Below the pieces are notes generated by a model. That model was given only the letters and a program-made list of their open reading frames with translations. It did no database searches and was not told the DNA's origin. Shown piece by piece: positions 2,803 through 33,479 of a stretch of DNA of 64,000 bases (position 1 is its first letter; each line of letters opens with the position of its first letter). The position numbers were made by a program, and so were the translations under genes. This DNA is from Opitutaceae bacterium (GTDB taxonomy: Bacteria > Verrucomicrobiota > Verrucomicrobiia > Opitutales > Opitutaceae): the NCBI GenBank assembly GCA_028284235.1, contig JANQSC010000020.1:128248-192247 (forward strand), given 5' to 3'.

Positions 2803-2906
2803 CGTTCGGACTCTCGGGAAGTTTCAATCAGCATCTTGTTCAAACAAACGAAGTCCCCGTTCTTCGCAATTCCAGTCGAATGGCGATACAAATCCGTTCG
2901 AATCTA

Positions 2907-15471: not shown

Positions 15472-15683
15472 TTTTTGACAGGATACGGTCCGCGTTGCGG
15501 ACCTGCAGCATCCCGTCATTGACCCCGACAAAGTCGGCGGCTAAGGCGGGATCATGATGACTTTAGATCAAAATCAATAATTTTAACCACTATCGAATGG
15601 CCTATAGACTAAATCATCCTGTTGGTCCCGTCATAGACGGGACCATCCTGTAGCCCCGATTACATCGGGGCGTATCCTGTAAA
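15472..15683. repeat. Family A scaffold-and-hairpin inverted-repeat element, copy A1
   Basis: Terminal inverted words tttttgacaggatac ... gtatcctgtaaa; right arm aatcatcctgtt-GGTCCCGTCataGACGGGACC-atcctgta-GCCCCGATtacATCGGGGC-gtatcctgtaaa. Confidence 0.85.
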
Positions 15684-15686
15684 TTA

Positions 15687-16625
15687 CTAACCCGCGCTCG
15701 CGTCCCAAAGTTCGTGTAGACGCTTCAAATCTCGTCGCATTGCCGCGAACACCGCTTTCTGAGGAATCGTAAGCTCTCGCTTCCCATGCTCCGCTCCACC
15801 GAGATCGTACTCCAAGTGCAACGAGACCAAGGGCCTCAAATTATATGAGCGTAGCGCTTTGAAATACCGATCGAAATCAACCTTCCCTTCGCCCAACGGC
15901 ACATTCTGCACTACCCAACGCCCATCTTTCTTCGCCCAGTCGAAATCTTTGATCGGCATCGTGCGGATATGCCCGGCCAAATACCGCAACCCCAACGGCC
16001 AGGACGATCCTCCATCCACCGTCGCGTGGCGAATGTCGTACTGGCAACCCAGCCAACGCGGATCGTGTCCATCCAACAAATACGCTAAATCCGTCACATA
16101 CGAGCCGATTACTTGCCCCGCGTGATTTTGATACGCTCCGTGCAATCCCACCGCTTCATTAAATGCAGCGAGATCGCTCAACTCGTCAGCGCAGTAGTCC
16201 AAATTCTCCCGCAAGCTCTTGTCCGCATCGGGGCGATAGTAGCCCATACGGTAGTGTTTGAATCCCAATTCGGCAGCTGTCCTCAACGACTGAATACCAG
16301 CGGAGTCGTCAACGCTCACGATCCGCGAAACCAGCATATTCGGCTCCATACCCGCCGCTCGAATCGCTTCCGCGGCTCGCGGCAGATCGTCCGAAGCCCG
16401 CTCCGGCAGCACATGCCCGCCTGGCCGAACCGTCAAGTCCACGCCGTCAAAACCCATCTCCGCCGTCGCTTCGGCCATGTCCCGATAGTCGAGAAACTGA
16501 AGGTGTTTTGAAAACAAATGGACGGAAAGCCGGTCGCCCCCGCTCTTCCCTCGCAACGGGACCACTCCTGTTGCCAGACCCAAACTACCCGCCAATGCCA
16601 GTTTCCCAAACGCGCGCCGATCCAT
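15687..16625 (-). CDS. TAT-exported sugar phosphate isomerase/epimerase-like TIM-barrel protein (AP_endonuc_2)
   Basis: Twin-arginine signal DRRAFGK; GFDGVDLTVRPGGH; YQNH, YDIRH and LHLEY metal-binding positions. Confidence 0.88.
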   Translation of the reverse strand: MDRRAFGKLALAGSLGLATGVVPLRGKSGGDRLSVHLFSKHLQFLDYRDMAEATAEMGFDGVDLTVRPGGHVLPERASDDLPRAAEAIRAAGMEPNMLVSRIVSVDDSAGIQSLRTAAELGFKHYRMGYYRPDADKSLRENLDYCADELSDLAAFNEAVGLHGAYQNHAGQVIGSYVTDLAYLLDGHDPRWLGCQYDIRHATVDGGSSWPLGLRYLAGHIRTMPIKDFDWAKKDGRWVVQNVPLGEGKVDFDRYFKALRSYNLRPLVSLHLEYDLGGAEHGKRELTIPQKAVFAAMRRDLKRLHELWDASAG

Positions 16626-16705
16626 GTCCATCCCGTCAGTATCCGGAAAACACTACGGGAATCCAGCGAAATCCAAATGTTCCTGCCGTCCGCTCTTCGA
16701 AAGCC

Positions 16706-16734
16706 TTGACCGCCTCCTCTCCACTTCGTAGCAA
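16706..16734 (+). promoter_or_regulatory. Possible sigma70-type promoter directly before the enolase-family start codon (would give a leaderless or near-leaderless mRNA)
   Basis: TTGACC (16706-16711), 17-nt spacer, TAGCAA (16729-16734), ATG at 16740; weak -10 match. Confidence 0.3.
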
Positions 16735-16739
16735 CCAGC

Positions 16740-18122
16740 ATGGCCACCCCTTCCCACAACGCTAGAATTACCGATGCTCGGCTCTACTTCCTTCCCGTAG
16801 AGATGCGCGTCCCGCTGAAGTTCGGAGCTCAAGTTCTCACCAAAGTGACTTGCGCCCGCGCCTGCGTGACCCTCGAAAACGAGAACGGCGAATCCGCCAT
16901 CGGCTGGGGCGAAACCCCGCTCAGCGTCGGCTGGGTATGGCCCTCCAGTATCGACTACGACGAACGCGAAACCGCCCTGCGCGAGTTTACCTGCTCGCTC
17001 ACTCGAGAACTGAAGAAATTCGACGCGAACGGTCACGCCTTGGAAATCGGCCACGCGTTTATCGAAAATCGACTCCAGGCCCTCCAGTCGGAGTTCAATG
17101 CCTCCCGCGAAGCGAGCCACGCTTTGCCTCACCTCGCCGCCCTCGTTTGCTTTTCGCCGCTAGACATCGCCATTCACGACGCGTATGGAAATCTTCAGTA
17201 CAAGCCCATCTACGAAACCTACACCAGCGAGTATCTGAGCAAAGACCTCTCCTACTTTTTCGAATCCGACGAGTTATTCGCTGGCAAGTACCCGTCCGAC
17301 TTCCTCACTCCATCCAAGCCAACTCTCCCCGTCTGGCATCTCGTCGGCGGCCTCGACCCGCTCGACGACTCCGAACTCGACGGACACGAACCCAATGACG
17401 GGTACCCGGTTGTACTGCGCGACTGGATCGACCGCGACGGTCTCAATTGCCTGAAAATCAAGCTGCGCGGCGACGACTCCGAATGGGACTACCAACGACT
17501 CGTCGCCATCGGGAAAATCGCCCTCGAAAAAGACGTCGAATGGCTGACCACCGATTTCAACTGCGCCGTCACCGAGCCCGACTACGTCAACGCCATCCTC
17601 GATCGCCTGAGAGACGAGTATCCCCGAATCTACCAGTCCATCCTCTATGTCGAGCAACCCTTTCCTTACGACCTCGAAGCCAACCAGATCGACGTGCGTA
17701 GCGTTAGCGCCCGCAAACCGCTTTTCATGGACGAAAGCGCCCACGACTGGCGTCTCGTCAAACTCGGCCAGACACTCGGATGGACCGGTGTCGCCCTGAA
17801 AACCTGCAAGACGCAGACCGGAGCCCTTCTCAGCCTTTGCTGGGCCAAAGCCAACGGCATGACGCTCATGGTTCAGGACCTGACCAATCCAATGCTCGCC
17901 CAACTTCCGCACGTGCAGCTCGCCCAGCACGCCGGTACCATCATGGGAGTCGAAAGCAACGGAATGCAGTTCTATCCCGACGCATCCCTTCCCGAACAAA
18001 CTGTCCATCCCGGAATCTACCAACGCCGCGCCGGCATCCTTGATTTGAATACAATCCAAGGAAACGGCTTCGGCTACCGCCTCGACAAAATCCAACGCGA
18101 CCTCCCGGACCCGGCGGTCTGA
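16740..18122 (+). CDS. Enolase superfamily protein (mandelate racemase/muconate lactonizing-like)
   Basis: LKIKLRG (KxK); acidic metal ligands in TTDFN, VEQP and MDES; GVALKTCK. Confidence 0.85.
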   Translation: MATPSHNARITDARLYFLPVEMRVPLKFGAQVLTKVTCARACVTLENENGESAIGWGETPLSVGWVWPSSIDYDERETALREFTCSLTRELKKFDANGHALEIGHAFIENRLQALQSEFNASREASHALPHLAALVCFSPLDIAIHDAYGNLQYKPIYETYTSEYLSKDLSYFFESDELFAGKYPSDFLTPSKPTLPVWHLVGGLDPLDDSELDGHEPNDGYPVVLRDWIDRDGLNCLKIKLRGDDSEWDYQRLVAIGKIALEKDVEWLTTDFNCAVTEPDYVNAILDRLRDEYPRIYQSILYVEQPFPYDLEANQIDVRSVSARKPLFMDESAHDWRLVKLGQTLGWTGVALKTCKTQTGALLSLCWAKANGMTLMVQDLTNPMLAQLPHVQLAQHAGTIMGVESNGMQFYPDASLPEQTVHPGIYQRRAGILDLNTIQGNGFGYRLDKIQRDLPDPAV

Positions 18123-18138
18123 AGACAGGGGAATTGTG

Positions 18139-18364
18139 TTTTACAGGATACGGCCCGAAATCTTCTGGACCAACTCAAGTGATCAGCTAAATCGTAGGGC
18201 CAGCGCTCGCGCTGTGCCGCGTTGCTTTTAACTCTTCAAACAACTGAACTACGCGGCACGCCGCAAGCGACGGCCCTACAATTCCCAACAACACGTCAAA
18301 ATCATCAAGTTTCCGCGATAGCGGGATCCTGTAGGCCCGTGGCACGGGCCGTATCCTGTTAAAA
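18139..18364. repeat. Family A element, copy A2, containing a GTAG REP doublet
   Basis: ttttacaggatacggccc ... aatcatcaagtt-tccgcgatagcggg-atcctgta-GGCCCGTggcACGGGCC-gtatcctgttaaaa. Confidence 0.85.
18194..18279. repeat. GTAG-type REP doublet (REPIN-like) R1
   Basis: gtagggccagcgctcgcgctgtgccgcg ... cgcggcacgccgcaagcgacggccctac; related doublets at 23901 and 31710. Confidence 0.85.
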
Positions 18365-18369
18365 CCGCG

Positions 18370-19374
18370 CTACTGCTTCGCGTAGCTCTCGAACGCTTCC
18401 GCGATCTTCGCCTGTTTCTCGTCCCCTTTGTGGAAGATGATCCGGTGCCGCATGAGAAACCGCGTTCCATCCGCCAGCGTGAATGTCTTGTCCTCGCGCG
18501 ACTCGTCCAAACTATTGAATCCAAACGGATTCGCGGTGAACAAGCCATAGTCGCGCACATGCCAGGGAGTCGGGTGACGAAAACTGGACGGGTGATTCAA
18601 GATAGCGATCCCCACATGCTTTCCTTCCAGCGGACCATGGTAGTCCACCCAAGCCGCTCGCTTGCTCCAAGTATCCCCATCGCGAATACCTTCGCTATTT
18701 ATGATACTCCCACCATTGCCTTCTTTCAAAGCCATATAGGAAGGGATGCGAACACTGAGTCCCGCGTCCTTGATGTCCCCGATTTCGATATCGCCATAGC
18801 TCGCGATAAACTCGATGTCAAAATCGACAATGACCTTCGAGTTTGTCTTTCGGATCACAATGGTCCGCTCGTCGGACATGAGCGGCTCCCCTCCGGAACC
18901 CAAATAATCGTTGGTCGTCACGATGAGCGCTCGCTTCTCGTTCGCGTCCACTTTCTTAAACGAACGATGGATGGTGCGCCCCAGCTTCTTCTTGAAACGG
19001 TCCAAACGCTCCTTGTCGTAGTCCCGCTCCGTCCCGGACCGCAACTCCAGCCATGTGTCGAACCCACCAACATTCTGATGCCCGAAATAGATCGAACGGT
19101 GATGCGGATGATCGTATTGCTCCCCTTCCACTTTCTCCATCGGATAGGCACGCGTCATGGGCACGCCCGTCGGTCCAATCAATGGATACAGGTAAGGCTT
19201 GTTGCCCTGGTCGATCACGTAATTCGTGACGAGCTCGCCGTCATAATTTACAGTCAAGCCCGAAGGGGTCTCTTCGATCGTGAAGCCTTCCCCTCCGAAC
19301 GAAAATTGGGCGGCGGCTAAAGCCACTAGGGGAAAAGAGACAATCTGAGCGAGATTCGTTTTCAAATGATTCAT
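18370..19374 (-). CDS. PmoA-like family protein (DUF6807), secreted; not a methane monooxygenase
   Basis: Signal peptide; KPYLYPLIGPTG, DHPHHRSIYFGH, NHPSSFRHPTPWHVRDYGLFTANPFG motifs. Confidence 0.85.
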   Translation of the reverse strand: MNHLKTNLAQIVSFPLVALAAAQFSFGGEGFTIEETPSGLTVNYDGELVTNYVIDQGNKPYLYPLIGPTGVPMTRAYPMEKVEGEQYDHPHHRSIYFGHQNVGGFDTWLELRSGTERDYDKERLDRFKKKLGRTIHRSFKKVDANEKRALIVTTNDYLGSGGEPLMSDERTIVIRKTNSKVIVDFDIEFIASYGDIEIGDIKDAGLSVRIPSYMALKEGNGGSIINSEGIRDGDTWSKRAAWVDYHGPLEGKHVGIAILNHPSSFRHPTPWHVRDYGLFTANPFGFNSLDESREDKTFTLADGTRFLMRHRIIFHKGDEKQAKIAEAFESYAKQ

Positions 19375-19511
19375 AATTAGAATGATGGGTAATAAGGAGC
19401 GTGACTATTAGCAAGACAGTCGAAGATTGCGAGCCCGAATCCAAAACGCCGAAAAGGAGTTTATGTTCCTGTTACATTGATCGAACACAGTCGCGGGAAG
19501 CAATATTTTCG

Positions 19512-19644
19512 AAACAGGATACGGCCCGCTTTACGGGCCTACAGGATGGCCCCGCAGTGGCGTGGCCAACAGGATCTTCCAATAATCATGTTCCCGCAGC
19601 GCGGGATCCTGTAGGCCCGTAAAGCGGGCCGTATCCTGTTAAAA
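19512..19644. repeat. Family A element, copy A3 (shortest, 9-bp spacer)
   Basis: Perfect 35-bp inverted repeat aacaggatacggcccgctttacgggcctacaggat (19513-19547) / 19606-19640. Confidence 0.9.
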
Positions 19645-19647
19645 AAA

Positions 19648-22600
19648 CTATTCCAGCGTGCTCATCCACTGCCAGATCGCCTCGAACTGCTTCTCCGAAT
19701 CGCCGTCGTAGTAGTTCGGATTTACCGCAGTCTCTTTGTCGCTCGTGTACTTCGGCATGATCGTCGTGGGGACAATGCGCTGCGGCCAGTGCATCCAGCT
19801 GTGATAGTACCCGGTCCGTAGACGTTCTCCCGACAGTCTCAAATTGGGGCCTTGCCCCTCGAACGCTTGAAGAGCAGGCGTATCCCCCACAGCATGACAC
19901 GTCACGCACGCGTAGCCCTCCAATCCAATCAACTTCGATCCAATCGCAACGGATTCTTCTTCAATTTTCGGGTGTTCCGCTTTGATCGGCACGCCTTGAC
20001 CCGCCGCCATACTTTTCGCCAGCAATTGAGCTCGACTCTTGAATGCTGGCATCCGCGCTTCCATCCACGGACGTGTTTTTTCCGCGGTCCCTGCAAACAA
20101 TTGCTCCAACCATTCAGCCTGCAACTTCTCCCCCGCTCGGCCGATGTCGGGTAGCGTATTCTCTCCGGAATGACATTGAACGCAATTCAGTCGCTCCATC
20201 GTCCGCTCCACGTATTCGCGTGGCGTCCAATTCGTCAGCGCGTTCGCGGTTGAATTGCGAAACGAGATCAGCGCCAGCCGATCCTCGGCAGACAGATTTA
20301 ACTCGGGGGCATTTCCTTTGTTCTCGGAAACGCAGCCCCGCGCAACCCAGTCCGCCTCCCACATTGCCTCGAATCCACTCGTCTCGACATGGAAGCGCTC
20401 ATTCCCGCCACCATGGCACACGAGACAGTTGTTTGCGACGATCGAACGACCCGCCTCTGTGTTGCCAGCGCCCGCGGTGGGCGTTTTCGGACGTTCCGCC
20501 AGCACATAGGCCGCGATATCCGAAGCCTCCTCTTCACTCAGTCGAAGGTCCGGGAAGACTGTATCCGGAAAATGCTTCGCGGGATGTTGCAAAAACTCGC
20601 GCAAGCCGCTGTCCGTGTGTTTCGACGATTCGGTCAACTCGTCGATCCAGAAGTTCAAATGCAGCGTATCCACCAGGGCTTTTCCCCTTTCCTCGCTCCC
20701 TGAAACGGGCTTCACCACATCGCCTGAACGCAGAGTCGCCAGATAGGCGGCAACATCCGCGGCGCGGTCCGGCGCGACCGTAGGACAAAGATCCTGAGGA
20801 TTCCGCACCCACGCTTCAATCCATCCTTGATTGAGGCGATTCCCAATATTCTCGAAATCAGGCAGCGTTTCTAGCAGCTCTGGCATTACCGTGCTCATGT
20901 CCATTCCGCGAGGCGTCTCATGACATTGAATACAGCGAGCAGCGGCAAAGAGCTCGCGCCCATCACGCCTACGGGCGTATTTTTCGATCAAGTCGTTGGA
21001 TACGGTCAAGAACGCCTCGTCCGGCACCGGTTCCCAAACGAAATTCTCGCCGCTCCACAAGAACTGCAATCGCCCTTCGCCGGGCTTGGCGCTCTGGTAG
21101 CTCGCGTAGATCGAATGCCCGCCGGACTCTAACTCGATCGGATCGCTCTTCAAGGGCAGCTCCCCTTCGAACACGCGCTCCCCGTCGATCAAAAGCGTGA
21201 CCCGCCCGTCTCCGACCATTTTAAAGGCGATCTGATCGCGCGACTCGACCACCAAAGTTCCCTCGAACAAAGTCTCAAACGTCTTCCTGACATTCATGAA
21301 CGGCGTGATCGGCGTTCCTTCCGGCACCGTGAACGCGATGCGGTCGACCATCACTGCATCGTCCGCGGCTTCGTAGGCCATGGTCATTGTCAAACCCGGC
21401 TCGCCCAAGGGCATCGAAGGCAAGTCCGGAAGATTCGTAAAGTCCAAGCCGTGCTCGGTGAACGCAGGACGCAAATTGTGAATCGTGTTCCAGATGGTCT
21501 CGCGAAACGGCTCTCCCGAGAGAGACGTGATGTCCATTTTTATCTCCATCTGCATCGCTTCCGTCATATGGGGCGCATACAGAAATACGGATCGCCCCCC
21601 GCCGAGAACCTTCGCCGCTCGAATGGCAACTGTATCCACATTGTTAACTGCCGCCTTTGACGGAGATTTCAAGGCCTCTGCTTCTAGCGCTTCGTCACGT
21701 CTGTCGATGGAGAACCGACCGCTCCCGTACTGCGGCCCCCAAATGTAATTCCACTTCTTTACGATGTAGCGGCGCGGATCTTCCGCTTGATCCGGATCGA
21801 TCGGTCCTGAAAAATCAATTACAATTCCGTTGTCATATGCGCGAATCCCCGTCGGCACTGGCGTCGACTCCTCCAAGTAACGCACGCGCTGGAATCCCGT
21901 ACCGCCGTTCGTCTGCCAGCCGCGCAGTCCGATCACATACAACTCCCCGCTCTTCGGATGGAACTTTCCCCGCTGGGCGGGAATAGACAGATCGATTGGC
22001 AGCTTATAGACGCCACCTTGAACCTGGCCGTCTACCTCGTCCCGCATCACTCGAAAAATCGACGATTTTCCGTAGGAAAAGTGTAGCATCTCGTTCCGGT
22101 GAACGGGTCCCCAGGGGCTGTTTTCCGGCACCCAAATCTGGCTCCCGCTCGAATTATCCACATTGTACGGCAGCCAAACCAAGGGACGCTCGTAATCGGT
22201 CGGCGCTCCGGGAAGCGTGCGGACGAAGTCCCGTCCGTCCCATTCGCTGGGCACCACGCCATGAAAACTGCCCGGTTGGCTCCAAGTGATTTTGCAGCGC
22301 GGCACGTGCGATCCTTCGTTCTCGCCCGTGGTAATCTCGCCGTTCGGGCCAACGCCCACACCACCCGGCGCCCGCAAGCCCCACGCATAGCGTTCCAAGG
22401 TCGAGCCATCGGGGCTCACTTTTAAAACCGATCCGCTGTGATCGGTCCACGGACTAAACCCCCGCCCGCCCGCTTGCACCGGCATTCCTTTGGAAAAATA
22501 GAAATTCCCCTCGCGATCAGTCTCCAGGTCGAAACTGAATTCGTGAAATCCCTCCGTAATCAAAACGTCGTTGTTGAAGCACTCGTAGAAGTCCGCTTCG

Positions 22601-23778
22601 CCATCCTCGTTCAGATCGTGCAAGCGCGTGATCTGGTCGCGGCCCTGCGTGTAAATCACGCCGTCCACGATTTTCAATCCGAGGGTTTGAAACAAGCCAC
22701 TCGCAAACCGCTTCCAAGTGATCGATTGCAGATCGCCTTCCAGCCCTGCCGCAATCCAGACATCCCCGTTCCAAGTCGAAAACGCCGCCCGGGTCCCGTC
22801 CTCGAAAAAGTCGAATCCGCCGAAGCGAATATTGGAAAACCAGGGATTGTCGTTGGGCAGAGGTATTGTGTCGACCGTGTATGGAGTCGCATCGATTCCC
22901 AACTGGCCCGAGGTCTCGAGCGTTTCGGAGTAAATTCCCGGACCGCCCTCCGTCAGCGCGCTGAGCGATGTTTCTGCATATTCGGGAGCCACGTCTCCGT
23001 TCCTCGAATACACGAGCTCAAATCGGACTGTCGATTCCGAAGGCGGAACGGCAACTACAACTCGTCCATCCGAACGCGTTTCCAGAGAAACGCCGTCCCG
23101 GCCGCCGCGCACGTAGTGGGAGACTGCGCGCGACTCGTCCGCGCCTTCCTCGACCAGCAATTCGAGTCGCTTGTCCCTCGGGCCGAGCTCGAAAGATCGC
23201 GAGAGCATCCCGTTATTCAGTGACGGCATTTCCAGTACCGTCGCTCTCCCAACCGTGTACTTGAGGACCACGGAATCGCCATGACGATACAACCCTTTGA
23301 AGCGGCCCACTTCATGCGGCATAGGACCGTTTTTGAGCGGACGCGGATCCTCCCACTCGCCCTCGATCGCCCAACCGGGACCGCCTTCGTTGATGAAGAA
23401 ATACGCGTCGCGATCTTCCGGCATGTAGGAGTTGCCGTGATGCTGGCGATCCCAAGGCGTGCCCGCGAAACGAACCCGCCCTTCGAACCCCGCCACCATT
23501 CGCAGCAATTCCGTGTCGAAGACGACACTCGCTTCTTCGTTTGGACCCACTTTGATCGCCAAACCTTTCAACGCGGCGACCTTTCCGCGGGGTCCAAATT
23601 GCCGGAACGTGTCAGCGATGAAGGGCCCCGTATCGACGAGGTCCCACCAATCGGCGTTCGGCTTCTGCGCCGCCCGTTCCTGGGCGCGTTCGCCACGCGT
23701 TTGATCGGCAGCCTTCGTCGCGGCAACCAGGGTCGCTACGGACAGCAAAACAATAAGTACACGTTTTTGGATTCGCAT
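19648..23778 (-). CDS. Large exported DUF6797 / beta-propeller / PA14-like / multiheme cytochrome c protein
   Basis: Signal peptide; four CxxCH motifs (CIQCH 20920-20934, CLVCH 20413-20427, CVQCH 20170-20184, CVTCH 19894-19908); IRFGGFDFFEDG...STWNGDVW propeller region; domain names are from recognition, not a search. Confidence 0.85.
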   Translation of the reverse strand: MRIQKRVLIVLLSVATLVAATKAADQTRGERAQERAAQKPNADWWDLVDTGPFIADTFRQFGPRGKVAALKGLAIKVGPNEEASVVFDTELLRMVAGFEGRVRFAGTPWDRQHHGNSYMPEDRDAYFFINEGGPGWAIEGEWEDPRPLKNGPMPHEVGRFKGLYRHGDSVVLKYTVGRATVLEMPSLNNGMLSRSFELGPRDKRLELLVEEGADESRAVSHYVRGGRDGVSLETRSDGRVVVAVPPSESTVRFELVYSRNGDVAPEYAETSLSALTEGGPGIYSETLETSGQLGIDATPYTVDTIPLPNDNPWFSNIRFGGFDFFEDGTRAAFSTWNGDVWIAAGLEGDLQSITWKRFASGLFQTLGLKIVDGVIYTQGRDQITRLHDLNEDGEADFYECFNNDVLITEGFHEFSFDLETDREGNFYFSKGMPVQAGGRGFSPWTDHSGSVLKVSPDGSTLERYAWGLRAPGGVGVGPNGEITTGENEGSHVPRCKITWSQPGSFHGVVPSEWDGRDFVRTLPGAPTDYERPLVWLPYNVDNSSGSQIWVPENSPWGPVHRNEMLHFSYGKSSIFRVMRDEVDGQVQGGVYKLPIDLSIPAQRGKFHPKSGELYVIGLRGWQTNGGTGFQRVRYLEESTPVPTGIRAYDNGIVIDFSGPIDPDQAEDPRRYIVKKWNYIWGPQYGSGRFSIDRRDEALEAEALKSPSKAAVNNVDTVAIRAAKVLGGGRSVFLYAPHMTEAMQMEIKMDITSLSGEPFRETIWNTIHNLRPAFTEHGLDFTNLPDLPSMPLGEPGLTMTMAYEAADDAVMVDRIAFTVPEGTPITPFMNVRKTFETLFEGTLVVESRDQIAFKMVGDGRVTLLIDGERVFEGELPLKSDPIELESGGHSIYASYQSAKPGEGRLQFLWSGENFVWEPVPDEAFLTVSNDLIEKYARRRDGRELFAAARCIQCHETPRGMDMSTVMPELLETLPDFENIGNRLNQGWIEAWVRNPQDLCPTVAPDRAADVAAYLATLRSGDVVKPVSGSEERGKALVDTLHLNFWIDELTESSKHTDSGLREFLQHPAKHFPDTVFPDLRLSEEEASDIAAYVLAERPKTPTAGAGNTEAGRSIVANNCLVCHGGGNERFHVETSGFEAMWEADWVARGCVSENKGNAPELNLSAEDRLALISFRNSTANALTNWTPREYVERTMERLNCVQCHSGENTLPDIGRAGEKLQAEWLEQLFAGTAEKTRPWMEARMPAFKSRAQLLAKSMAAGQGVPIKAEHPKIEEESVAIGSKLIGLEGYACVTCHAVGDTPALQAFEGQGPNLRLSGERLRTGYYHSWMHWPQRIVPTTIMPKYTSDKETAVNPNYYDGDSEKQFEAIWQWMSTLE

Positions 23779-23900
23779 AGGTAAATAGTATGCTCGTCCC
23801 AGGGAATAGGTAACGGTATTTCCTGAGAATGTCAGCGACTCAAGGAGAAACTAAGGTGCAACAACAAGAATTCAATAAGTCGCTAGTTCTGTGTTTGAGT

Positions 23901-24011
23901 GTAGGGCCTTCGCTCTTGTCTCGGCGTAGCTCGAAGGGCAGAGACGGATGCGAAGCGCCGCGAAGTTAGATCAATTTTCAACTCGCGGCATGGCGCAAGC
24001 GCCAGCCCTAC
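23901..24011. repeat. GTAG-type REP doublet R2 with a 34-bp insertion in the left REP loop
   Basis: gtagggccttcgc[insert]tgcgaagcgccgcg ... cgcggcatggcgcaagcgccagccctac. Confidence 0.85.
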
Positions 24012-24025
24012 ATTTTCGACCGATC

Positions 24026-25432: not shown

Positions 25433-25465
25433 AGTCTCAAAATTCGCTTGTTCGGTCCTCAGTCC

Positions 25466-27337
25466 CTACGCCCCAGTCGCAATCCCCTGTAAAAAATCGT
25501 CGTAGCTCGCGCAATTTCGCAATCGACTCAGAGCAGCGTCGCACGTATCCGCATCCGCGATACCCGTATTGCGGGCTAGAAAAACAATGTACTCCGCCAC
25601 TCGCTGGCAATACCGCAACCGGCCTTCATCGCTGATCGAGTAGAATCGAGCCCGCTGCCGATACCCTGCTGGAGAGTGGTCGCCCAACGCGTCCTTTTCC
25701 ACCCGGCCATCCGCCGCCAATACGTAAAGAAAATTGTATTCGAACCAGAACATGTGATCCGGATGCGGCGTCAGCGCTTCCAGCGCCGCCCGGCACTCTT
25801 CTTTTGATCCGAACACGTCCGTCGAAACCTTTTCGAACGCGAGCGCGCTCATGATGAACTCCCGGGCCATATCGCGCTCCGTTTCCGATTCGCTGAACGC
25901 GCCCGCTACCGCGAGATCGAGCGTAAACGCGTACCAGTCCCTCCACAGCTTTTGATCGACGGGATCGCTCGAACCCGAAAGAGCCACGCCCATTTCATAC
26001 GTGTAGCGTCCGCTCGTCTTGATCTCCAAATTGCCGCCCGTAACCGCGCCCATGACTTGGTAGTTCTCCGCCGATTTTCCCGAACCGGAGTGAAACCCAA
26101 TACTCACGCCAAAGGCCGCACACACCGTCCATTGGCGTTCCGCGAGCGCCTTCAACTCCCCATTATCCGGATACGGAATGTTCTTCTGAAATCCAAACGC
26201 TGGCGCCACGAAGTTCACCGACATATCCATCGCCTCGCACAGCGCGAGCATGATGGCGGTCGTCTCCGGAGTCGTCAGGCCGGGAAGCTCGTCGATCGAC
26301 AACTCGCGCAAATACGCTCGCCCCACTTCGGTCGTAAACGCCGCTTCCCTGGCGGCCCGATACTTCGCGTCGCGGGCCTTCATTTTCTTCATCGCCGGCC
26401 ACACATAGCACAGCAAAGCGTCGCATTCGGCTGCATCCATGGAAAGTCCCGCTGCTTCGACGCGCTTCGAGACCCACTCGACTAACGAAGCGTCGATCTC
26501 GGCCGCGACAAACGTCCGCTTCTCGCTCTCGGTCTCTGGAACAGTCGTTTCCGCCAGTTCGGGTGAGAGATCGAAAGTGATATACGAAGCGAAGAGGCAA
26601 CCAGCAACGAGGGCGTCCTCCCGTTCGTCGAACTTGCCGCCAATCGGCTGATGGTCGGCGTTGAAACTCCAGGGAATCCCTCGTCTGTGGAACCCTGTCT
26701 TCAGTTTCGCCAACACGCTGCCGTGACTCATTCCCTCGACCGACTGCCCCTGGTGGCCTTCCGGCACATTCGTGCCGATAAAGGGAAACGGAACGGTATC
26801 GAGCTCATCCGCGAGCATGACATCGACGTCGAACACCAACTCCCGCGGAATGCTGTTTTGATTGGCAGTCAAGCCGATGTCCAAATTCGACATCGCCCAG
26901 TCGACACCCGGCCAATGCAGCGTGGTAAAACGGGCTCCGATACCCAACGTGCTCTTGCCCAACGGCGCCGCCGCGCCCGGAAAAATCGTATTTTCGGGAT
27001 CGCTTTCCTGTATCCGATTTTTGAGGGCGATCAAATTCTCGAAAGTCGCCGGGAAATAAGCCGCGTCGCCGATCGACACGCCATCGCTGAGAGCCTTCAA
27101 CGGATCGATCCCGTCAGCCGCGTGCAGTTCCCACGCATGGTCGCCGAGAGTATCCTCCACCAGCGCCCAAGCGCCCTCGGCCGTTTCAAATCCGCTTTGC
27201 GGGTAGCGCGTGATTCCGCTGTTCGATTCGAGATTCGCGCGAAGACCATCCCAATCGAGACAGAAATCGGGGCTGATGCAGGGATTGCGGGCAATCCGAA
27301 TGTCGTTCGACAGCAAGAACTGGTTGATTGGCTTCAT
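25466..27337 (-). CDS. uxaE: Tagaturonate/fructuronate epimerase family protein with extended termini
   Basis: QNSIPRE, FNADH, ITFDLS, ELSIDE, GFHSGSGK and EIKTSG match the UxaE motif order; directly upstream of uxaC. Confidence 0.8.
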   Translation of the reverse strand: MKPINQFLLSNDIRIARNPCISPDFCLDWDGLRANLESNSGITRYPQSGFETAEGAWALVEDTLGDHAWELHAADGIDPLKALSDGVSIGDAAYFPATFENLIALKNRIQESDPENTIFPGAAAPLGKSTLGIGARFTTLHWPGVDWAMSNLDIGLTANQNSIPRELVFDVDVMLADELDTVPFPFIGTNVPEGHQGQSVEGMSHGSVLAKLKTGFHRRGIPWSFNADHQPIGGKFDEREDALVAGCLFASYITFDLSPELAETTVPETESEKRTFVAAEIDASLVEWVSKRVEAAGLSMDAAECDALLCYVWPAMKKMKARDAKYRAAREAAFTTEVGRAYLRELSIDELPGLTTPETTAIMLALCEAMDMSVNFVAPAFGFQKNIPYPDNGELKALAERQWTVCAAFGVSIGFHSGSGKSAENYQVMGAVTGGNLEIKTSGRYTYEMGVALSGSSDPVDQKLWRDWYAFTLDLAVAGAFSESETERDMAREFIMSALAFEKVSTDVFGSKEECRAALEALTPHPDHMFWFEYNFLYVLAADGRVEKDALGDHSPAGYRQRARFYSISDEGRLRYCQRVAEYIVFLARNTGIADADTCDAALSRLRNCASYDDFLQGIATGA

Positions 27338-27449
27338 GAGGAAAAAGGAGGACCCCCTAACACGTGTTGGCGGACTAAGAGGCCACTATTCGCAATCGCA
27401 GGCAAAAAGAAAGCGCAAAAATCGCTTAATCCGCCCACTGCGAGAATCG

Positions 27450-27640
27450 ACAGGATTGTTTTTACAACAGGATGCGCTGCGCTCACTTGATCCCGTCCCG
27501 CTCTGCAGGCCGAGAACTTGATGATTCGGCAAACCCTCGTGTTTCTGGGTTGGCTAGCTACCACAAAGCCAAAATCATCAAGTTCCCGCGCTAGCGGGAT
27601 CAAACGAGCGCAGCGCATCCTGTTGTAAAAACAATCCTGT
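27450..27640. repeat. Family A element, copy A4
   Basis: Perfect 35-bp terminal inverted repeat acaggattgtttttacaacaggatgcgctgcgctc / gagcgcagcgcatcctgttgtaaaaacaatcctgt; inner words aacttgatgatt / aatcatcaagtt. Confidence 0.9.
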
Positions 27641-27732
27641 TTCTTCCTCCAAGTATGGGCTTGCCCGTTCCGTAGCCCCCACACAAAATCGCCGCCTTTT
27701 CACGTTCAATCTCAACCACCCCTGATATTTCT

Positions 27733-28536
27733 ATGCCTCAAGTCGAAACCAACGGAATCACAATGAACTACGAGGAGCGCGGATCCGGCGATCCCCTCAT
27801 CCTTATCATGGGCATCACCGCCCCGGGCGCCGTTTGGGAAATCCACGCCGAACACTGGAGTTCGAAGTACCGTTGCATCATGGTCGACAACCGAGGCATC
27901 GGCGGCACCGATAAGCCGGAAGGCGACTACTCCAGCGCCATGATGGCCGACGACTACGCCGGGCTTATGGACGCGATCGGCATCGAGTCCGCTCGCGTGG
28001 TCGGCGTATCCATGGGTTCTATCATCGCCCAGCAGCTTTGCCTGCGTCACCCCAGCAAAGTGAAAAGCGCAGTCCTCATGTGCCCTTGGGCTCGCTGCGA
28101 CCGCTACGCCGCTTCGATCTTCGAGCACATGAAAGCCTGTTTCGCCCACCTGTCACCCGCTCAATTCATGGAGTGGATACAGCTGCTCATCTTCACCAAA
28201 CCGTTTTGGGACAACGACGAAGCCCACGCCAGTTTGCTGGAAGGACGCCACGGATTCGCTCACGGCCCCGCGCCTCAGCCACTGCACGGACTCGAAGGGC
28301 AAGCCGCGGCGTGCATCAACCACGACGTTCACGCCCAGCTGGGCGAAATCTCCCAGCCTTGCCTCGTCATCGGCGGCAAGGACGACATCTTCACTCCGCT
28401 GTGGATGGGCGAGGAAGTGGCCAACGGCATCCCAAACTGCGACACGCATTTCTACGACGACGCCGGCCACGCCTTCCACTTCGAGAAAGTCGACGACTTC
28501 AACCCGCGGGTTTTGGAGTGGCTGGACAACCACTGA
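27733..28536 (+). CDS. Alpha/beta hydrolase (3-oxoadipate enol-lactonase-like)
   Basis: LILIMG, VDNRGIGGT, GVSMGS nucleophile elbow, GKDD acid, AGHAFHFE catalytic His. Confidence 0.9.
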   Translation: MPQVETNGITMNYEERGSGDPLILIMGITAPGAVWEIHAEHWSSKYRCIMVDNRGIGGTDKPEGDYSSAMMADDYAGLMDAIGIESARVVGVSMGSIIAQQLCLRHPSKVKSAVLMCPWARCDRYAASIFEHMKACFAHLSPAQFMEWIQLLIFTKPFWDNDEAHASLLEGRHGFAHGPAPQPLHGLEGQAAACINHDVHAQLGEISQPCLVIGGKDDIFTPLWMGEEVANGIPNCDTHFYDDAGHAFHFEKVDDFNPRVLEWLDNH

Positions 28537-28539
28537 GAT

Positions 28540-28654
28540 TTTTTCCCCACAGATTGCACAGATAAACGCAGATATTGGGTAGAGAATTCACATCGAGCTT
28601 TCTCAATTTTCGTAATCAATAAAATCTGAGTCCATCTGCGTAATCTGTGGGCAA
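28540..28654. repeat. Family C inverted-repeat element, copy C2 (opposite orientation to C1, 50-bp spacer)
   Basis: tttttccccacagattgcacagataaacgcagat ... atctgagtccatctgcgtaatctgtgggcaa. Confidence 0.85.
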
Positions 28655-28661
28655 TCCTCCC

Positions 28662-28994
28662 ATGACTCCCGATCAACTCGCTCACATCCGGTCAAAGATC
28701 GAAGCGCGGATCGAGGAGATCGACAACGCTCTGGCCGAGGACGACCCCGAGTCGAAACCGGTCGCGCCAGACGTCGCGATCGGGCGACTTTCTAGACTCG
28801 ACTCGATGCAGGCCCAGCAAATGAACCTGGCCCAGCAACGACGCCAACGGGAAGAAAAAGAGAAACTCGAAAGCGCCCTCGAGCGCATAGAAGACGGGAG
28901 CTACGGGATCTGCGCCTACTGTCTTTCGCCTATCGCCTACGAGCGCCTCGAAGCCATGCCCGATGCAGTAGTCTGCATCAGCTGCGCCCGATAA
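28662..28994 (+). CDS. TraR/DksA family C4 zinc-finger protein
   Basis: RLSRLDSMQ coiled-coil tip; YGICAYCLSPIAYERLEAMPDAVVCISC zinc finger; start MTPDQL at 28662. Confidence 0.9.
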   Translation: MTPDQLAHIRSKIEARIEEIDNALAEDDPESKPVAPDVAIGRLSRLDSMQAQQMNLAQQRRQREEKEKLESALERIEDGSYGICAYCLSPIAYERLEAMPDAVVCISCAR

Positions 28995-29012
28995 ATAGGG
29001 AAACAGGGTTGG

Positions 29013-29191
29013 TTTTTTAACAGGATGCGTCCCGCGCAGCGGGACTCACTTGATGGCCCCGTCGATGACGGGCCAACTTGATGATTCTGCAGATCCTGGT
29101 TCTTTCCCAACTCTTCCGAAACCCAAATTCATCAAGTTCCCGCGCTAGCGGGATCAAACGAGTCCGCAAAGCGGACCGTATCCTGTAAAAA
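29013..29191. repeat. Family A element, copy A5
   Basis: ttttttaacaggatgc-GTCCCGCgcaGCGGGAC-tcacttgat-hairpin-aacttgatgatt ... tcatcaagtt-CCCGCgctaGCGGG-atcaaacga-GTCCGCaaaGCGGAC-cgtatcctgtaaaaa. Confidence 0.9.
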
Positions 29192-29198
29192 CTAAAAC

Positions 29199-30080
29199 CT
29201 AAGCCGATCCTGTTCCCATCGCTTGCGCGTCGGCTTTTCGGTCGGCGAACCAAGCGTCATCCGGAAAACGGATACACGCCGCCTGAACTGCCTCCATGAG
29301 TTCACCATGTATCAAAGGAAACATCCGCGGCGCTCCTGTTCCCGCTCCCGCCGCGGCTGTGTCCACCGCTTGGGCCGCATCCACCAAACGAAACAGCACG
29401 CCAATCTTGCGTCCCCACGCGCCTTGTTTCGACGCATCCAACTCGATCACCTTGTCGAACGCCTGAATCGTCTTCCCCTCCGGGCCGTCCGGCTCGAAGA
29501 AAACCTGTCCCTCGCCCAAGGTCTTGTACAACGAACAGCCCAATTCAAACCAGGCATTGACGTCGTCCGGCCGCGCTCGCACTGCCCGTTCATAGTACTC
29601 GCTCGCAGTCGATTCGTCGCCCTGCGAACTTTCCAAGATCGCGAGCGAACGCAACGCTGGGTAGAAGGAGTCGTCCGCTTCCAGCACTTTTCCAAACGCC
29701 ACTCGAGCATCGTCCCACTGTTTCAGCGAATGCTGCACAATCCCCAAATTAACCCAGCACTCGGGATAGTCGTCCCGCTGTTCGATGCTCAATTGGAATT
29801 GCTCGATCGCCTCCTCGTATCGCTGCAGATGCAGGAGCATGTTGCCCGCATTGTAGTAGTCGCGAAAATTGGGCTCGACGCGAGCCGCCTCCAAAAACGA
29901 GCCTAACGCCTCCTCAATCCGCTGCATTCGCTCCAAAAGCAAGCCGCGGTTGCTGTACAAAAGCACGCTCGGTTCTAGATCCCGAATCGCCGCGTCGAAA
30001 ATGTCGAGCGCGCCCCCGGCATCCCCCGAACGCTCCCTTTCAATCGCTGCCGCAAGGGCCTCCGCTACCGCGTCTGACAT
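29199..30080 (-). CDS. Tetratricopeptide repeat protein
   Basis: Repeated TPR-like helices (LYSNRGLLL, YYNAGNMLL, CWVNLGIV, AWFELGCSL, AWGRKIGVL); start taken at MSDAV (30080). Confidence 0.85.
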   Translation of the reverse strand: MSDAVAEALAAAIERERSGDAGGALDIFDAAIRDLEPSVLLYSNRGLLLERMQRIEEALGSFLEAARVEPNFRDYYNAGNMLLHLQRYEEAIEQFQLSIEQRDDYPECWVNLGIVQHSLKQWDDARVAFGKVLEADDSFYPALRSLAILESSQGDESTASEYYERAVRARPDDVNAWFELGCSLYKTLGEGQVFFEPDGPEGKTIQAFDKVIELDASKQGAWGRKIGVLFRLVDAAQAVDTAAAGAGTGAPRMFPLIHGELMEAVQAACIRFPDDAWFADRKADAQAMGTGSA

Positions 30081-30127
30081 AGCCGTCAAAACTGCGAAGG
30101 CGACAATTCGGTGTCGATCTTGAAATA

Positions 30128-30194
30128 AACCCGCCGAGGACGTCGGGTTCCACCTCCAACTAGTCAAAGGTGGAACGCGACGTCCCGGCGCGTT
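30128..30194. repeat. GGTG-foot REP-like doublet R5 (feet facing inward, 14-bp spacer)
   Basis: aacccgccgaggacgtcgggttccacc ... ggtggaacgcgacgtcccggcgcgtt. Confidence 0.75.
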
Positions 30195-30291
30195 TGATCA
30201 GCTAAAGAAAACCCATTTTCGCAGCGCGAAACCCATAGTTCCCGCAAAGCGGGAACTCAAGGCCGCCAGGCCGATGTTGAAGATGAACATA

Positions 30292-30493
30292 TTTGTCGTC
30301 GCTGCACTAGGATGACCTATCCGTCTCCGTCCCGACTAGCGGGACTACGCCGCGACAAGCCAGACAAATAGGACACCTCCTGCGGAGACGAACAAAGTCA
30401 TCCTCTAGCCGATGAGACCTTATTTTCGCGTAGCGAATCCTACTGTTCCCGCAACGCGGGAACTCCTAGCCCCGACCCTGTCGGGGAGATGAC
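30292..30493. repeat. Family B element, copy B2, with a nested 40-bp family D insert
   Basis: Right arm ccttattt-TCGCgtaGCGA-atcctact-GTTCCCGCaacGCGGGAAC-tccta-gCCCCGACcctGTCGGGGa-gatgac has the same scaffold as the B1 right arm. Confidence 0.75.
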
Positions 30494-31572
30494 TAAGCAC
30501 TCTCAACCGGCTTCACCCTTATCCGCGTAACTTCCAACGGCGCCAGCACGCGAAATTGCGGTCCCCAAGTCCCCGTCCCACGACTCACGTATAAAAACAC
30601 ATCCTTCTTCAGTTCCGTCAACCCCGCCTTCGCCGAATAAACCAGCTTGGTCAAAAAATGAAACGGAAAGATCTGCCCCCCATGCGTATGACCCGACAAC
30701 TGCAAGTCGAACCGATCGAATATCCCCGGTCGAACACTGGGCCGATGATTCAGAAACAGTGTATACGAATCATTGGATACATTCTCAAACGTCCTCGCTT
30801 CCAACGCATCAAAATCCTGTCCCTCCACAGCTGCCGGATCGTCGATCCCAGCGACGGTCACGCCATTGTCTAGCGCCCTCGACTCGTTTTGAAGCAAATC
30901 GAGGCCCGCATCCCGCGTAAGCTCCATCGCGTGACCCAGCCCAGCATAGACTTCGTGATTTCCAACCACCGCGAACTTCCCGAGCGGCGCACCCAGCTCC
31001 TGCAACGCCTTCACATACGGCCCCATCATTTCCAGGTAGCCATCAAAGAGGTCCCCCGTGGATACAATCAAGTCCGGCTTCATTGCATTGACCCGCTCCA
31101 CCAATCGCCGAGTTCGCTTCAAGGAGCTCGAATCGCCCAGGTGCAAATCGGAGATTTGGACCAGAGTGAATGGAGTTGTCACTTTAGTTGACGTGAGCGA
31201 CACCGTTTTCACCGCAATCCGACGAGCGGATACAAAGCCGTAGGCGCAAATCAAGCCGCCAGAAGCCAGCATCCATTGCAACTGGCTCGCATCCGAAAAC
31301 TCCGGGACGAACACCTGGAACAGATCGAACACCGGGGCGATTGAGCCGAATACAAATACCACCCCCACCCAGTGGTAACCGACCCACGCAATTGGCAGCG
31401 ACGCTCGGTGCCACTTTCGCCGCTCCATGTAGTTGGCGACAAACAGAGAGAGGAAACAAACGAGAATGACCCCCGCTACACCGACCGAGTGATGCCCCAA
31501 TCCTCGCGCAATGCCCGCGTACAAATAGTAATTGTAAGCGCTGAGAATGGCGAAAAAGACGAGGATGAACAT
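30493..31572 (-). CDS. Membrane-anchored metallophosphoesterase (YkuE/YaeI-like)
   Basis: N-terminal TM helices; QISDLH, STGDLFD, VGNHE, LNHRP, LSGHTHGGQI and VSRGTG motifs; alternative TTG start at 31584. Confidence 0.92.
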   Translation of the reverse strand: MFILVFFAILSAYNYYLYAGIARGLGHHSVGVAGVILVCFLSLFVANYMERRKWHRASLPIAWVGYHWVGVVFVFGSIAPVFDLFQVFVPEFSDASQLQWMLASGGLICAYGFVSARRIAVKTVSLTSTKVTTPFTLVQISDLHLGDSSSLKRTRRLVERVNAMKPDLIVSTGDLFDGYLEMMGPYVKALQELGAPLGKFAVVGNHEVYAGLGHAMELTRDAGLDLLQNESRALDNGVTVAGIDDPAAVEGQDFDALEARTFENVSNDSYTLFLNHRPSVRPGIFDRFDLQLSGHTHGGQIFPFHFLTKLVYSAKAGLTELKKDVFLYVSRGTGTWGPQFRVLAPLEVTRIRVKPVESA

Positions 31573-31622
31573 AAAGCGTCCCAACAGGAATACACCCGAC
31601 GCCTTTCTTTCCAGACATTTTT

Positions 31623-31916
31623 TTGGAACAGTGATTTCTGTGAAATCAAATCCCGTCGGTGACGGGAACAGGATCCCGTTTCACGGGAGCAGGATGATCC
31701 AACCGAACCGTAGGGCCAGCGCTTGCGCTGTGCCGCGATGTTGGATCGCACCAGATTTCTCTAACTACGCGGCACTGCGCGAGCGCAGGCCCTACATAGA
31801 GGTGCAATGACCCAGAAGTCCATCAAGTTCCCGACCCGCCCCGTCAATGACCCCGACTCAGTCGGTGGCTTGGTGGGACGGGTCGGGATCAAGCGAGCGA
31901 AGCGCATTCTGTTAAA
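31623..31916. repeat. Family A element, copy A6, containing a REP doublet and a nested 39-bp cassette
   Basis: ttggaacagTGATTTCtgtGAAATCAaa-hairpin-acaggat-hairpin-agcaggatgat ... catcaagtt-hairpin-atcaagcga-GCGAAGC-gcattctgttaaa. Confidence 0.85.
31710..31795. repeat. GTAG-type REP doublet R3
   Basis: gtagggccagcgcttgcgctgtgccgcg ... cgcggcactgcgcgagcgcaggccctac; the left REP differs from R1 at one position. Confidence 0.88.
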
Positions 31917-32012
31917 CACTCTTCCTAAAGCCCGAAACGCGTTCGCGACACTTTTTTGGAACTTGTTTCTCTTACGACAGACTACCCCTAAACCAATTAT
32001 CTTCCCTACCCC

Positions 32013-32891
32013 ATGAAATCGAAAACCCTCTTACGCTACGTGTTGGCCGTCACATTGTTCTTGGCCGGATTCTTCGCCCATTCTCTTTACCTTCGAGTTG
32101 TAACAACGCCCGCTCCAGTTCCCGCATCCATAGCCGGCAAGTCCAACTCTCTCGAACACGAAATTCGATCGCTAAACGACCAACTGGCCGCAGCGCAGAC
32201 GGAGAACGCGCTCTTGCAATCCCAACTCGCGGAAACTCCCGATCAACAGACATTCGAGGTCCCGGAAGAAGGGGGAGCAATCAGTTTTACCGCTTCGAGC
32301 GCCTCCGGAGTCGCCGAGGCGATCGAGTTCAATTCCGAGCGGATGGAAGAGATGATGTCCCGGCAAGTCGACCGTCAGCTCGACGTGTACGCAGCGCGCC
32401 TGAATCTCAATGACGAGCAACGAGCCCAGCTCAAAGAGATTATGCTCATGCGCATGACCCAAATCCGGTTCCGCTTCGGTCCCGACGGCGCCGAGCGGAC
32501 GGAAGACGACAACGGCGCCCCGCTCATAACTCAATCGGACATCGATAATCTCGCCGCCGACATCCTATCGCCCGAACAGCTCTACGAATACGACGAAATG
32601 CGCGCTCAGGAACAAGCTGCCCGTAGTGAAATGATGGCGACCGCCCAACTCACCCAAATCGCTCCTCAGCTCGGACTTTCCGAAGAACAGAAAGACCGCG
32701 TCTACTCGATCTACTACGAACAGTCGCTCGGGATGGAGCAAGGCTACGCCAATCCTCAACAGATGCAGGAATCTCAAGCGGAAGCCGACGCGCTCATCGA
32801 GGAAGTTCTCGACGAAGGACAACGCGAAGTCTTCCGCGCCATGCGCGAAGGCCAGTCAGCGTTCGGGAATTTCACCATCTTCGCTCGTTGA
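32013..32891 (+). CDS. Hypothetical membrane-anchored periplasmic protein with coiled coil and two Spy/CpxP-like LTxxQ motifs
   Basis: N-terminal TM segment; LNLNDEQRAQL and LGLSEEQKDRV motifs; helical composition. Confidence 0.7.
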   Translation: MKSKTLLRYVLAVTLFLAGFFAHSLYLRVVTTPAPVPASIAGKSNSLEHEIRSLNDQLAAAQTENALLQSQLAETPDQQTFEVPEEGGAISFTASSASGVAEAIEFNSERMEEMMSRQVDRQLDVYAARLNLNDEQRAQLKEIMLMRMTQIRFRFGPDGAERTEDDNGAPLITQSDIDNLAADILSPEQLYEYDEMRAQEQAARSEMMATAQLTQIAPQLGLSEEQKDRVYSIYYEQSLGMEQGYANPQQMQESQAEADALIEEVLDEGQREVFRAMREGQSAFGNFTIFAR

Positions 32892-32916
32892 AACAGACAG
32901 AAACGAGAATCAAGTA

Positions 32917-33167
32917 TTGGAACAGTGATTTCTCCGAAATCAAATCTCGCACGCGAGACCAAGATCCCGCTGCGCGGGAGCAGGATGGTCACTCGGGTAG
33001 TGCACGAGAAATTCCCCGTCTCTATCGCGGGCGTCGCGCATGTCTCGGCGTAGCTCGAAGTGCGAAGACGGAAGCAACGCCCCTACACAATTGCAACGTC
33101 ATCAAGTTGGCTCGCTAGAGCCATCAAGCGAGCGATCCCTCTTTGAGGGGGAGCGCATCCTGTTAAA
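32917..33167. repeat. Family A element, copy A7, containing a GTAG REP interrupted by the 34-bp insert
   Basis: ttggaacagTGATTTCtccGAAATCAaa ... agcaggatgg ... tcatcaagtt-GGCTCgctaGAGCC-atcaagcga-hairpin-gcatcctgttaaa. Confidence 0.85.
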
Positions 33168-33173
33168 GTAACT

Positions 33174-33479
33174 TTATTCTCTGTCCGCTAGCGCTTCCGC
33201 TTCGCGTTTCAACGACGGATCGAAGAACATTGTCCCAAATGGTACCAGCGATACGAATACACCTAAGGCCGCTCGACTGAACTTCCAATCGAGGTCGATC
33301 CATACGCGTATGAGTATCCAGATGTAGATGATAAACAGAATCCCGTGAATCATCCCAACCACGCTCACCGCTTCAGGCGTATCCCAAATGTACTTCAACG
33401 GCATCGCGACGAACACCAGAATGATAAACGAAAGCCCCTCAATAAAGGCCACTTTGCGAAATAGCTGCAATTGCTTCAT
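33174..33479 (-). CDS. DUF3817 family small membrane protein
   Basis: FRKVAFIEGLSFIILVFVAMPLKY, GMIHGILFIIY and SLVPFGTMFFD motifs. Confidence 0.88.
   Translation of the reverse strand: MKQLQLFRKVAFIEGLSFIILVFVAMPLKYIWDTPEAVSVVGMIHGILFIIYIWILIRVWIDLDWKFSRAALGVFVSLVPFGTMFFDPSLKREAEALADRE

Follow-up and report, generated by a model that had tools for sequence, protein, structure and literature searches.

Seven inverted-repeat elements in an Opitutaceae genome

The elements described here, which we call family A, lie in a 64-kb stretch of Opitutaceae DNA (hereafter the window), part of a 205-kb contig of a genome derived from a coral metagenome; we examined their structure, their spread and their relation to genes for GxxExxY proteins. 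Seven elements (A1 to A7), all reported in a first-pass annotation of the DNA, are present at the coordinates given below, each within an intergenic gap. They have terminal inverted repeats, no coding capacity and a common arm plan of word-hairpin-word-hairpin-word, as that annotation had proposed. In the inward direction a typical arm reads TTT(A)ACAGGAT-RC-[slot 1]-T-ACAGGAT or TCRYTTGAT-[slot 2]-AACAGGATGAT or AACTTGATGAT. The individual hairpins that it quoted were all found (GCCCCGAT-gta-ATCGGGGC, GGTCCCGTC-tat-GACGGGACC, GTCCCGC-gca-GCGGGAC, GGCTC-tagc-GAGCC and the minimal GCGAAGC/GCGCAGC). The word ACAGGAT occurs 27 times in the window, far above its frequency in shuffled sequence (4.56 ± 2.4 copies; a count of 27 is attained in none of 100 shuffles), and the seven elements contain 21 of these copies; for CATCAAGTT the count is 8, with 0.3 expected.

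A covariance model of one arm, R1, was scored against the window arms and against loci outside the window. It recognizes 13 of the 14 window arms (12 at 35.8–78.6 bits). Scores are weak for two left arms, that of A2, which is decayed (17.9 bits), and that of A6, which is deviant (14.1 bits), and the A7 left arm has no match; these are the three left arms that had been described as deviating.

A1 (15472–15684) consists of a left arm at 15474–15563 (+) and a right arm at 15611–15684 (−), scoring 49.5 and 63.6 bits; 3 nt separate the end of the right arm from the stop codon of the gene at 15687–16631 (−). A2 (18139–18364), with its decayed left arm at 18139–18188 (+) and a right arm of 78.2 bits at 18299–18363 (−), occupies the gap between two convergent stop codons and carries a nested GTAG-headed palindrome in its centre (18194–18280). 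A3 (19506–19647) is compact, with arms placed by the model at 19510–19579 (+) and 19580–19643 (−), and its predicted single-stranded DNA fold has an energy of −62.3 kcal/mol (z −14). The arms of A4 (27450–27640), placed in the same way at 27463–27527 (+) and 27572–27627 (−), are bordered by one additional outer ACAGGAT word per end (27450–27456 and 27634–27640), and slot 1 of this element is the mini-hairpin GCGCTGCGC. A5 (29013–29191; arms 29016–29087 (+) and 29126–29190 (−), 68.1 and 78.6 bits) sits between a convergent dksA/traR-type gene and the gene at 29199–30167 (−). In A6 (31623–31916) the deviant left arm (31623–31700) has the words AACAGTGAT, AACAGGAT and AGCAGGATGAT, resembling those of a metagenomic locus described below (L119), and the right arm (31817–31916 (−), 35.8 bits) has a branched slot 2 of 58 nt; a nested GTAG palindrome lies between them at 31710–31795. 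The left arm of A7 (32917–33167) spans 32917–32990 and is of the same subtype as that of A6, the spacer holds a degenerate palindrome, and the right arm (33096–33167 (−), 61.9 bits) ends 6 nt from the stop codon of a DUF3817 gene at 33174–33479 (−).

The GTAG-headed palindrome (GTAGGGCCAGCGCTYGCGCTGTGCCGCG ... inverted copy) of the A2 and A6 loops, degenerate in A7, also stands alone at ~23900–24015 of the window and in two other Opitutales loci (L188:8513 and L084:4498), and resembles the GTAG repetitive extragenic palindromic (REP) sequences reported for Opitutus terrae (PMC3733652). A short-read assembly of the same sample is broken at A2 and A3, and in the source metagenome the depth of the arm unitig is only ~1.5–2x that of the flanks.

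Hairpin slots are conserved in pairing and reassorted between copies

In alignments of 42 and 51 distinct arms, 88.9% and 86.5% of the cells in the two slot helices are paired, compared with 63% (63.1% for the 51 arms) in shuffles, and the number of cells changed on both sides is 83 and 98 respectively, compared with 26 and 32. Compensatory changes are found at 10 of the 11 slot pairs, with a score reached by 0 of 500 shuffles, and sliding the partner by 1–3 columns as a control brings pairing down to 24–50% (27–47% for the 51 arms). As these alignments were fitted to the arm model, they lean towards it. When the slots are folded singly, 60% of them beat their shuffles at p ≤ 0.05 (mean −6.5 vs −2.6 kcal/mol); the 7-nt GCTTCGC slot type is below the size handled by the energy model, and the slot-1 variant GCGCTCGnnnnCTCGCT forms no hairpin. 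With this variant as the exception, covariation in the fitted alignments supports the earlier suggestion that the slots are conserved in structure rather than in sequence. In predicted single-stranded folds of whole elements, the words of one arm pair with those of the other and each slot projects as a side hairpin (z −5.4 to −14). The strand asymmetry of G-U pairs gives no signal (21 vs 23), and a palindrome would show none in any case.

Many different combinations of slot-1 and slot-2 types are found, and the right arms of A4 and A5 share an identical 33-nt word2-slot2-word3 block behind differing slot 1 sequences; "interchangeable", the term used in the first-pass annotation, is therefore a fair description of the slots.

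Family A arms in other Verrucomicrobiota

Scanning a single genome per species with a degenerate arm pattern gave at least 106 loci, and R1, the kind of model that the annotation had suggested building, separates the arms of Opitutales and other Verrucomicrobiota from chance matches to the words. Among the loci listed, 16 come from six Opitutales/Verrucomicrobiota genomes and contain 27 arms scoring 30–66 bits, while the 90 unrelated loci that match the words by chance all score 28.3 bits or less; among these loci the family is detected by R1 only in Opitutales/Verrucomicrobiota genomes. Outside the window the family usually takes the form of compact palindromes, ~130 nt long, whose two arms converge and are separated by 7–28 nt; single arms are also present. 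The commonest word 2 in these copies is (T)ACATGAT and the commonest word 3 AACTTGATG or AACATGATG. The arm is an array of three words with the core ACAGGAT and the variants ACATGAT and ACTTGAT.

Orthologous sites in relatives are empty

Syntenic contigs from three related genomes (L188/L189, L190 and L191) were found through the DUF6807 gene that lies between A2 and A3, whose homologues in these contigs are 74–77% identical. Across 43 kb of syntenic sequence they contain no arm. Between the stop codons of the convergent DUF6807 and enolase-like genes there are 2–11 nt in L188–L190 and 247 nt, filled by A2, in the window. At the divergent UxaE/hydrolase spacer both flanks align with the three relatives, and exactly 27450–27640 (A4) is absent there; A3 is likewise absent upstream of the orthologous DUF6807 gene. 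The corresponding alignment for A1 is not clean. The absence of A2, A3 and A4 from relatives with conserved flanks identifies the elements as insertions. This comparison of filled and empty sites, called for by the first-pass annotation, supports its proposal of a non-autonomous mobile element in the part that concerns a gene-less insertion.

A larger difference is also seen in this region. A gene encoding a 1376-residue DUF6797/cytochrome c protein (19648–24025) lies between DUF6807 and UxaC in the window only, bordered by A3 at one side and a GTAG palindrome at the other; DUF6807 and UxaC are adjacent in L188, L190 and L191, without this block.

Verrucomicrobial arms flank a GxxExxY gene

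In an uncultured Opitutaceae chromosome (OX638348.1; locus L037), two arms 414 nt apart surround an open reading frame (ORF) of 123 residues that matches PF13366 PDDEXK_3 (6.9e-41) and TIGR04256 'GxxExxY protein' (1.9e-41). The genes of its closest homologues, P0130 (22 contigs, L193–198, the same element as L108), P0122 (L199/200) and P0128 (L201), have an R1 arm on both sides. A copy in Pelagicoccus mobilis (L192) keeps the word-hairpin-word-hairpin-word plan with the words ACGATGAT/GCATGAT and a GCGAAGC mini-hairpin. A search for GxxExxY genes between the arms, proposed in the annotation, was thus positive: the arms flank a gene of ~122 residues (PF13366/TIGR04256) in five of five verrucomicrobial cases. 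Gene-bearing and gene-less copies occur on one contig or one chromosome, and no further GxxExxY gene was found in the other 106 loci listed. Both forms are seen behind one type of host gene: an arm starts 9–25 nt after the stop codon of a dksA/traR-type zinc-finger gene at L199:2842–2910, where the element carries the GxxExxY gene, and at 28994–29087 of the window, where A5 does not.

Residues D66, E76 and K78, forming a D...ExK triad, and the glutamate of the GxxExxY motif are invariant in 64 homologues. The AlphaFold (AF2) model, with a predicted local distance difference test score of 89.9, is nearest to Cas4 SSO0001, the LHK and lambda exonucleases, MGME1 and the AddAB nuclease domains, with a weaker likeness to Hjc; a search of the PDB by sequence found no relative. 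As modelled, the GxxExxY protein is a minimal PD-(D/E)XK nuclease with a Cas4/lambda-exonuclease-like fold. The family comprises 16,243 representative clusters at E ≤ 0.001 (clusters at 50% identity), and the tandem two-domain fusions among its members hint at a dimer. PF13366 is listed as of unknown function (PMC3424549). A defence or phage function was considered and rejected, as PADLOC and PHROG gave no meaningful functional match. In two marine metatranscriptomes the ORF is covered by short contigs of 99% identity, and the arms are covered by none.

The same word arrays surround GxxExxY genes in diverse metagenomes

Scanning metagenome contigs with the L037 protein yielded 80 GxxExxY loci at 48–67% identity. 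In a de novo count of 7-mers, ACAGGAT ranks top on both flanks of these loci, in inverted orientation: it lies upstream on the gene strand at 39 of 78 loci and downstream on the opposite strand at 35 of 77, against ~1% expected by chance, and control windows 250 nt farther out are nearly without words. The usual metagenomic arm is TTAACAgGGAT-ag-ACAGGAT-aa-ACAGGAT-ga, typically without hairpins; the modal arm has three words, and the spacing between words is 9 nt in 127 of ~200 word pairs. L113, for example, has three tandem words and no hairpins, with the third word overlapping the ATG, an overlap found in several gene-bearing copies. Unrelated hairpins stand between the words in L141 and in L119/L120, independently. 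The defining conserved parts of the arm are the three words with their 9-nt period across phyla, and the hairpins are a lineage-specific addition to the linkers.

Other word sets also surround GxxExxY genes (CACAGAT/CGCAGAT and xAGGAT), and protein identity follows word class (0.60 within vs 0.49 between classes; permutation p < 0.0005). In-frame stops are present in 5 of the 80 genes, as in decaying selfish genes. In one of these five pseudogenes (L119/L120:2078–2080) it is the Glu codon of the GxxExxY motif itself that has become a TAA stop (GFV*KVY).

The arms are tightly packed on host stop codons, within 30 nt of one in 34 of 67 cases and 3–25 nt after stops in the window, and some host genes end on the terminal TAA of TTAACAGG as their stop. 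This packing suggests insertion at TAA/TTAA-like sites, or read-through expression. In two loci from different organisms (L110 and L123), the element starts at the TAA of seemingly the same host gene (...EWRRYE*) and the first words differ, through either an old common insertion or repeated use of one site. A further variant is found in L156 (1360–1910 and 2460–2900) and L147, where long tandem arrays border the GxxExxY gene; they consist of GACAGGATG-type words in ~55-nt units and are inverted between the two sides, with more than 50 copies counted in L156.

Further repeats in the window

A hairpin-less relative of family A, family B, lies at 485–573 of the window and has inverted arms of the three words CACAGAT-CGCAGAT-CTCAGAT; a second element of this kind, with the three words CACAGAT/CGCAGAT/CTCAGAT, inverted, lies at 28543–28654. 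Since the CAGAT word class of family B also flanks GxxExxY genes (L137 and L148), the window holds two arm families of one super-architecture. At ~2900–3100, GC-rich hairpins stand between xTAGGAT-type words (CTAGGAG and AATAGGAT; inverted ATCCTAT and GGATCCTAG), possibly a third family. Two direct copies, ~200 nt apart, of a unit TTTCGCnnGCGAA...GTTCCCGCAAnGCGGGAAC with two small palindromes each are found at 30217–30470.

Discussion

The arms that make up family A flank a GxxExxY gene elsewhere, and the same words recur around such genes across metagenomic loci. We therefore regard family A as the gene-less form of that element, and consider it probable that its members are non-autonomous copies, comparable to miniature inverted-repeat transposable elements (MITEs), of a palindromic selfish element with a central GxxExxY nuclease gene. 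Family A would be the version, decorated with hairpins, that a general GxxExxY-associated element takes in Opitutales. The words stand 9 nt apart on 2-nt linkers in most bacteria; in Opitutales these linkers appear to have grown into GC-rich hairpins that are kept paired by compensatory change and reassorted between copies. The nuclease, probably as a dimer, may recognize the word arrays, most plausibly in a fold-back or cruciform formed by pairing between the arms. The slot hairpins would be extruded in such a structure, bringing the word spacing back to about 8–10 nt; with the slots removed, successive words are ~10 and 8 nt apart, which nearly matches the canonical 10 and 9, so that hairpin extrusion would restore the word array. 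The nuclease might then cut at the element ends and so mobilize the arms, making it possible for gene-bearing and gene-less copies alike to move or be copied.

Several observations weigh against this interpretation. The verrucomicrobial association comprises five genes only, and the 64-kb window contains no GxxExxY gene, so that no family A copy there carries one. The window copies are diverged from one another rather than recent and identical, and the correlation between protein and word class is also expected from plain co-inheritance. No target-site duplication was recognized at A2, A4 or the hairpin-less copies, where the outer TTAA, AATT and GAATTC are palindromic and indistinguishable from an extension of the inverted repeat. 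PD-(D/E)XK nucleases hydrolyse DNA; we know of none that carries out strand transfer on its own, and to our knowledge nucleases of the GxxExxY type do not act alone as transposases. The missing duplication and the hydrolytic chemistry of the fold together call for caution on mobilization.

The mechanism raised in the first-pass annotation, in which HUH enzymes of the RAYT (REP-associated tyrosine transposase) or IS200 type read single-stranded DNA hairpins beside short guide words, would make these elements akin to REPs and REPINs and has some attraction. In the commoner arm type, word 2 on the outward strand is ATCATGTAG or ATCCTGTAG, which puts GTAG immediately before hairpin 1, on its 5' side; A2 and A6 each enclose a further, separate GTAG palindrome; and Opitutus terrae is reported to be rich in GTAG REPs (PMC3733652). 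The gene between the arms, however, is PF13366 and never a Y1 transposase in the five cases, the GTAG head is confined to type I arms and missing from type II arms and the hairpin-less relatives, and it is the word array rather than the hairpin that is conserved across phyla; we accordingly judge this mechanism very improbable. Persistence mainly as RNA, with the elements serving as 3'-untranslated-region stabilizers or terminators, or as 5' structures that sequester start codons, and with the GxxExxY gene as an occasional passenger, would fit the position of the arms close behind stop codons, the strong predicted structures, the overlap of the third word with the ATG in several gene-bearing copies and the recovery of the ORF in metatranscriptome contigs. 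Yet Rfam at its gathering thresholds gives no hit in the window and 18 related loci, the hairpins are not followed by T runs, and pure structure leaves unexplained why a 7-nt word should be conserved between phyla and go with a single protein family, which makes an RNA role unlikely. Intrinsic terminators as such were rejected, with one terminator-like site in the seven elements. A sponge for CsrA, whose GGA site ACAGGAU resembles, was also set aside, because words 2 and 3 are mostly ACATGAT or ACTTGAT and lack GGA.

A third possibility, to which we give about the same low weight as to an RNA role, is that the word arrays serve another factor, such as a host protein or a recombinase, and that the GxxExxY gene is cargo or an addiction- or defence-type gene in the loop. 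The chemistry of the fold and the failure to find a target-site duplication, both noted above, speak for this explanation, and in three of the seven window copies a nested, unrelated palindrome occupies the same place at the centre, indicating that the loop accepts insertions. Against it stand the association itself, found in all five verrucomicrobial cases and most of the 80 diverse loci, the constant central position of the gene relative to the arms, the tracking of protein clade by word class, and the absence of functional matches in PADLOC or PHROG.

Considered as gene-less copies of a nuclease-bearing element, family A resembles several known systems in part. Like REP/REPIN sequences with their RAYTs, its members are short palindromes between genes, often paired as inverted doublets able to fold back and located just downstream of genes, and many copies lack a gene while a few enclose a small one of nuclease type; in the present case the partner is a PD-(D/E)XK GxxExxY protein rather than an HUH Y1 enzyme, the arms consist of three words with a 9-nt period, and GTAG is not general. 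With bacterial MITEs (Correia/CREE, ERIC and the pneumococcal BOX with its boxA-B-C) they share terminal inverted repeats, lack of coding capacity, presence/absence variation and modularity, but no target-site duplication was seen and there is no DDE transposase parent, the putative parent carrying a ~122-residue nuclease only. The insertion sequences IS200/IS605 (TnpA) are likewise very small, with hairpins beside short conserved words and plausible recognition as a single strand; they differ in that no Y1/HUH protein lies between the arms of family A, and these arms are symmetric and inverted rather than distinct left and right hairpins. Each inverted end of Tn7 (TnsB sites) and Mu (L1–L3/R1–R3) also has a short binding word repeated directly about three times, although over 90–150 nt as compared with 30 nt here, with a different protein class; the words described here are putative binding words. 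The intervening sequences of 23S rRNA (four-helix-bundle S23p type) place an ORF of ~120 residues in the loop that closes a long inverted-repeat stem, and their gene family is multi-copy. The present elements match them in ORF size, stem-loop position and multi-copy nature but encode another protein family, and a link was rejected as no 16S or 23S motif occurs in any of 202 sequences.

Literature searches found no published description of GxxExxY flanks or of the tandem words, the three papers in which 'GxxExxY' appears being concerned with other matters than its flanks, and the element class is apparently without prior description. More broadly, and as a tentative proposal that we hold with somewhat less than even confidence, GxxExxY proteins may be the nucleases of undescribed, very widespread minimal selfish elements of ~450 bp with abundant gene-less derivatives. 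Each would consist of a single PD-(D/E)XK gene of ~122 residues set between inverted arrays of three ACAGGAT words with a 9-nt period, and in the Opitutales family A hairpins selected for structure would have colonized the linkers. Such elements account for intergenic repeats that break metagenome assemblies, and the hairpin-in-linker variant is a natural experiment on structured insertions in a protein-recognized word array. If the nuclease mobilizes the arms, the gene-bearing elements would be among the smallest autonomous mobile elements known. For a very large protein family of unknown function, the association provides a role that can be tested and a candidate word for DNA recognition.

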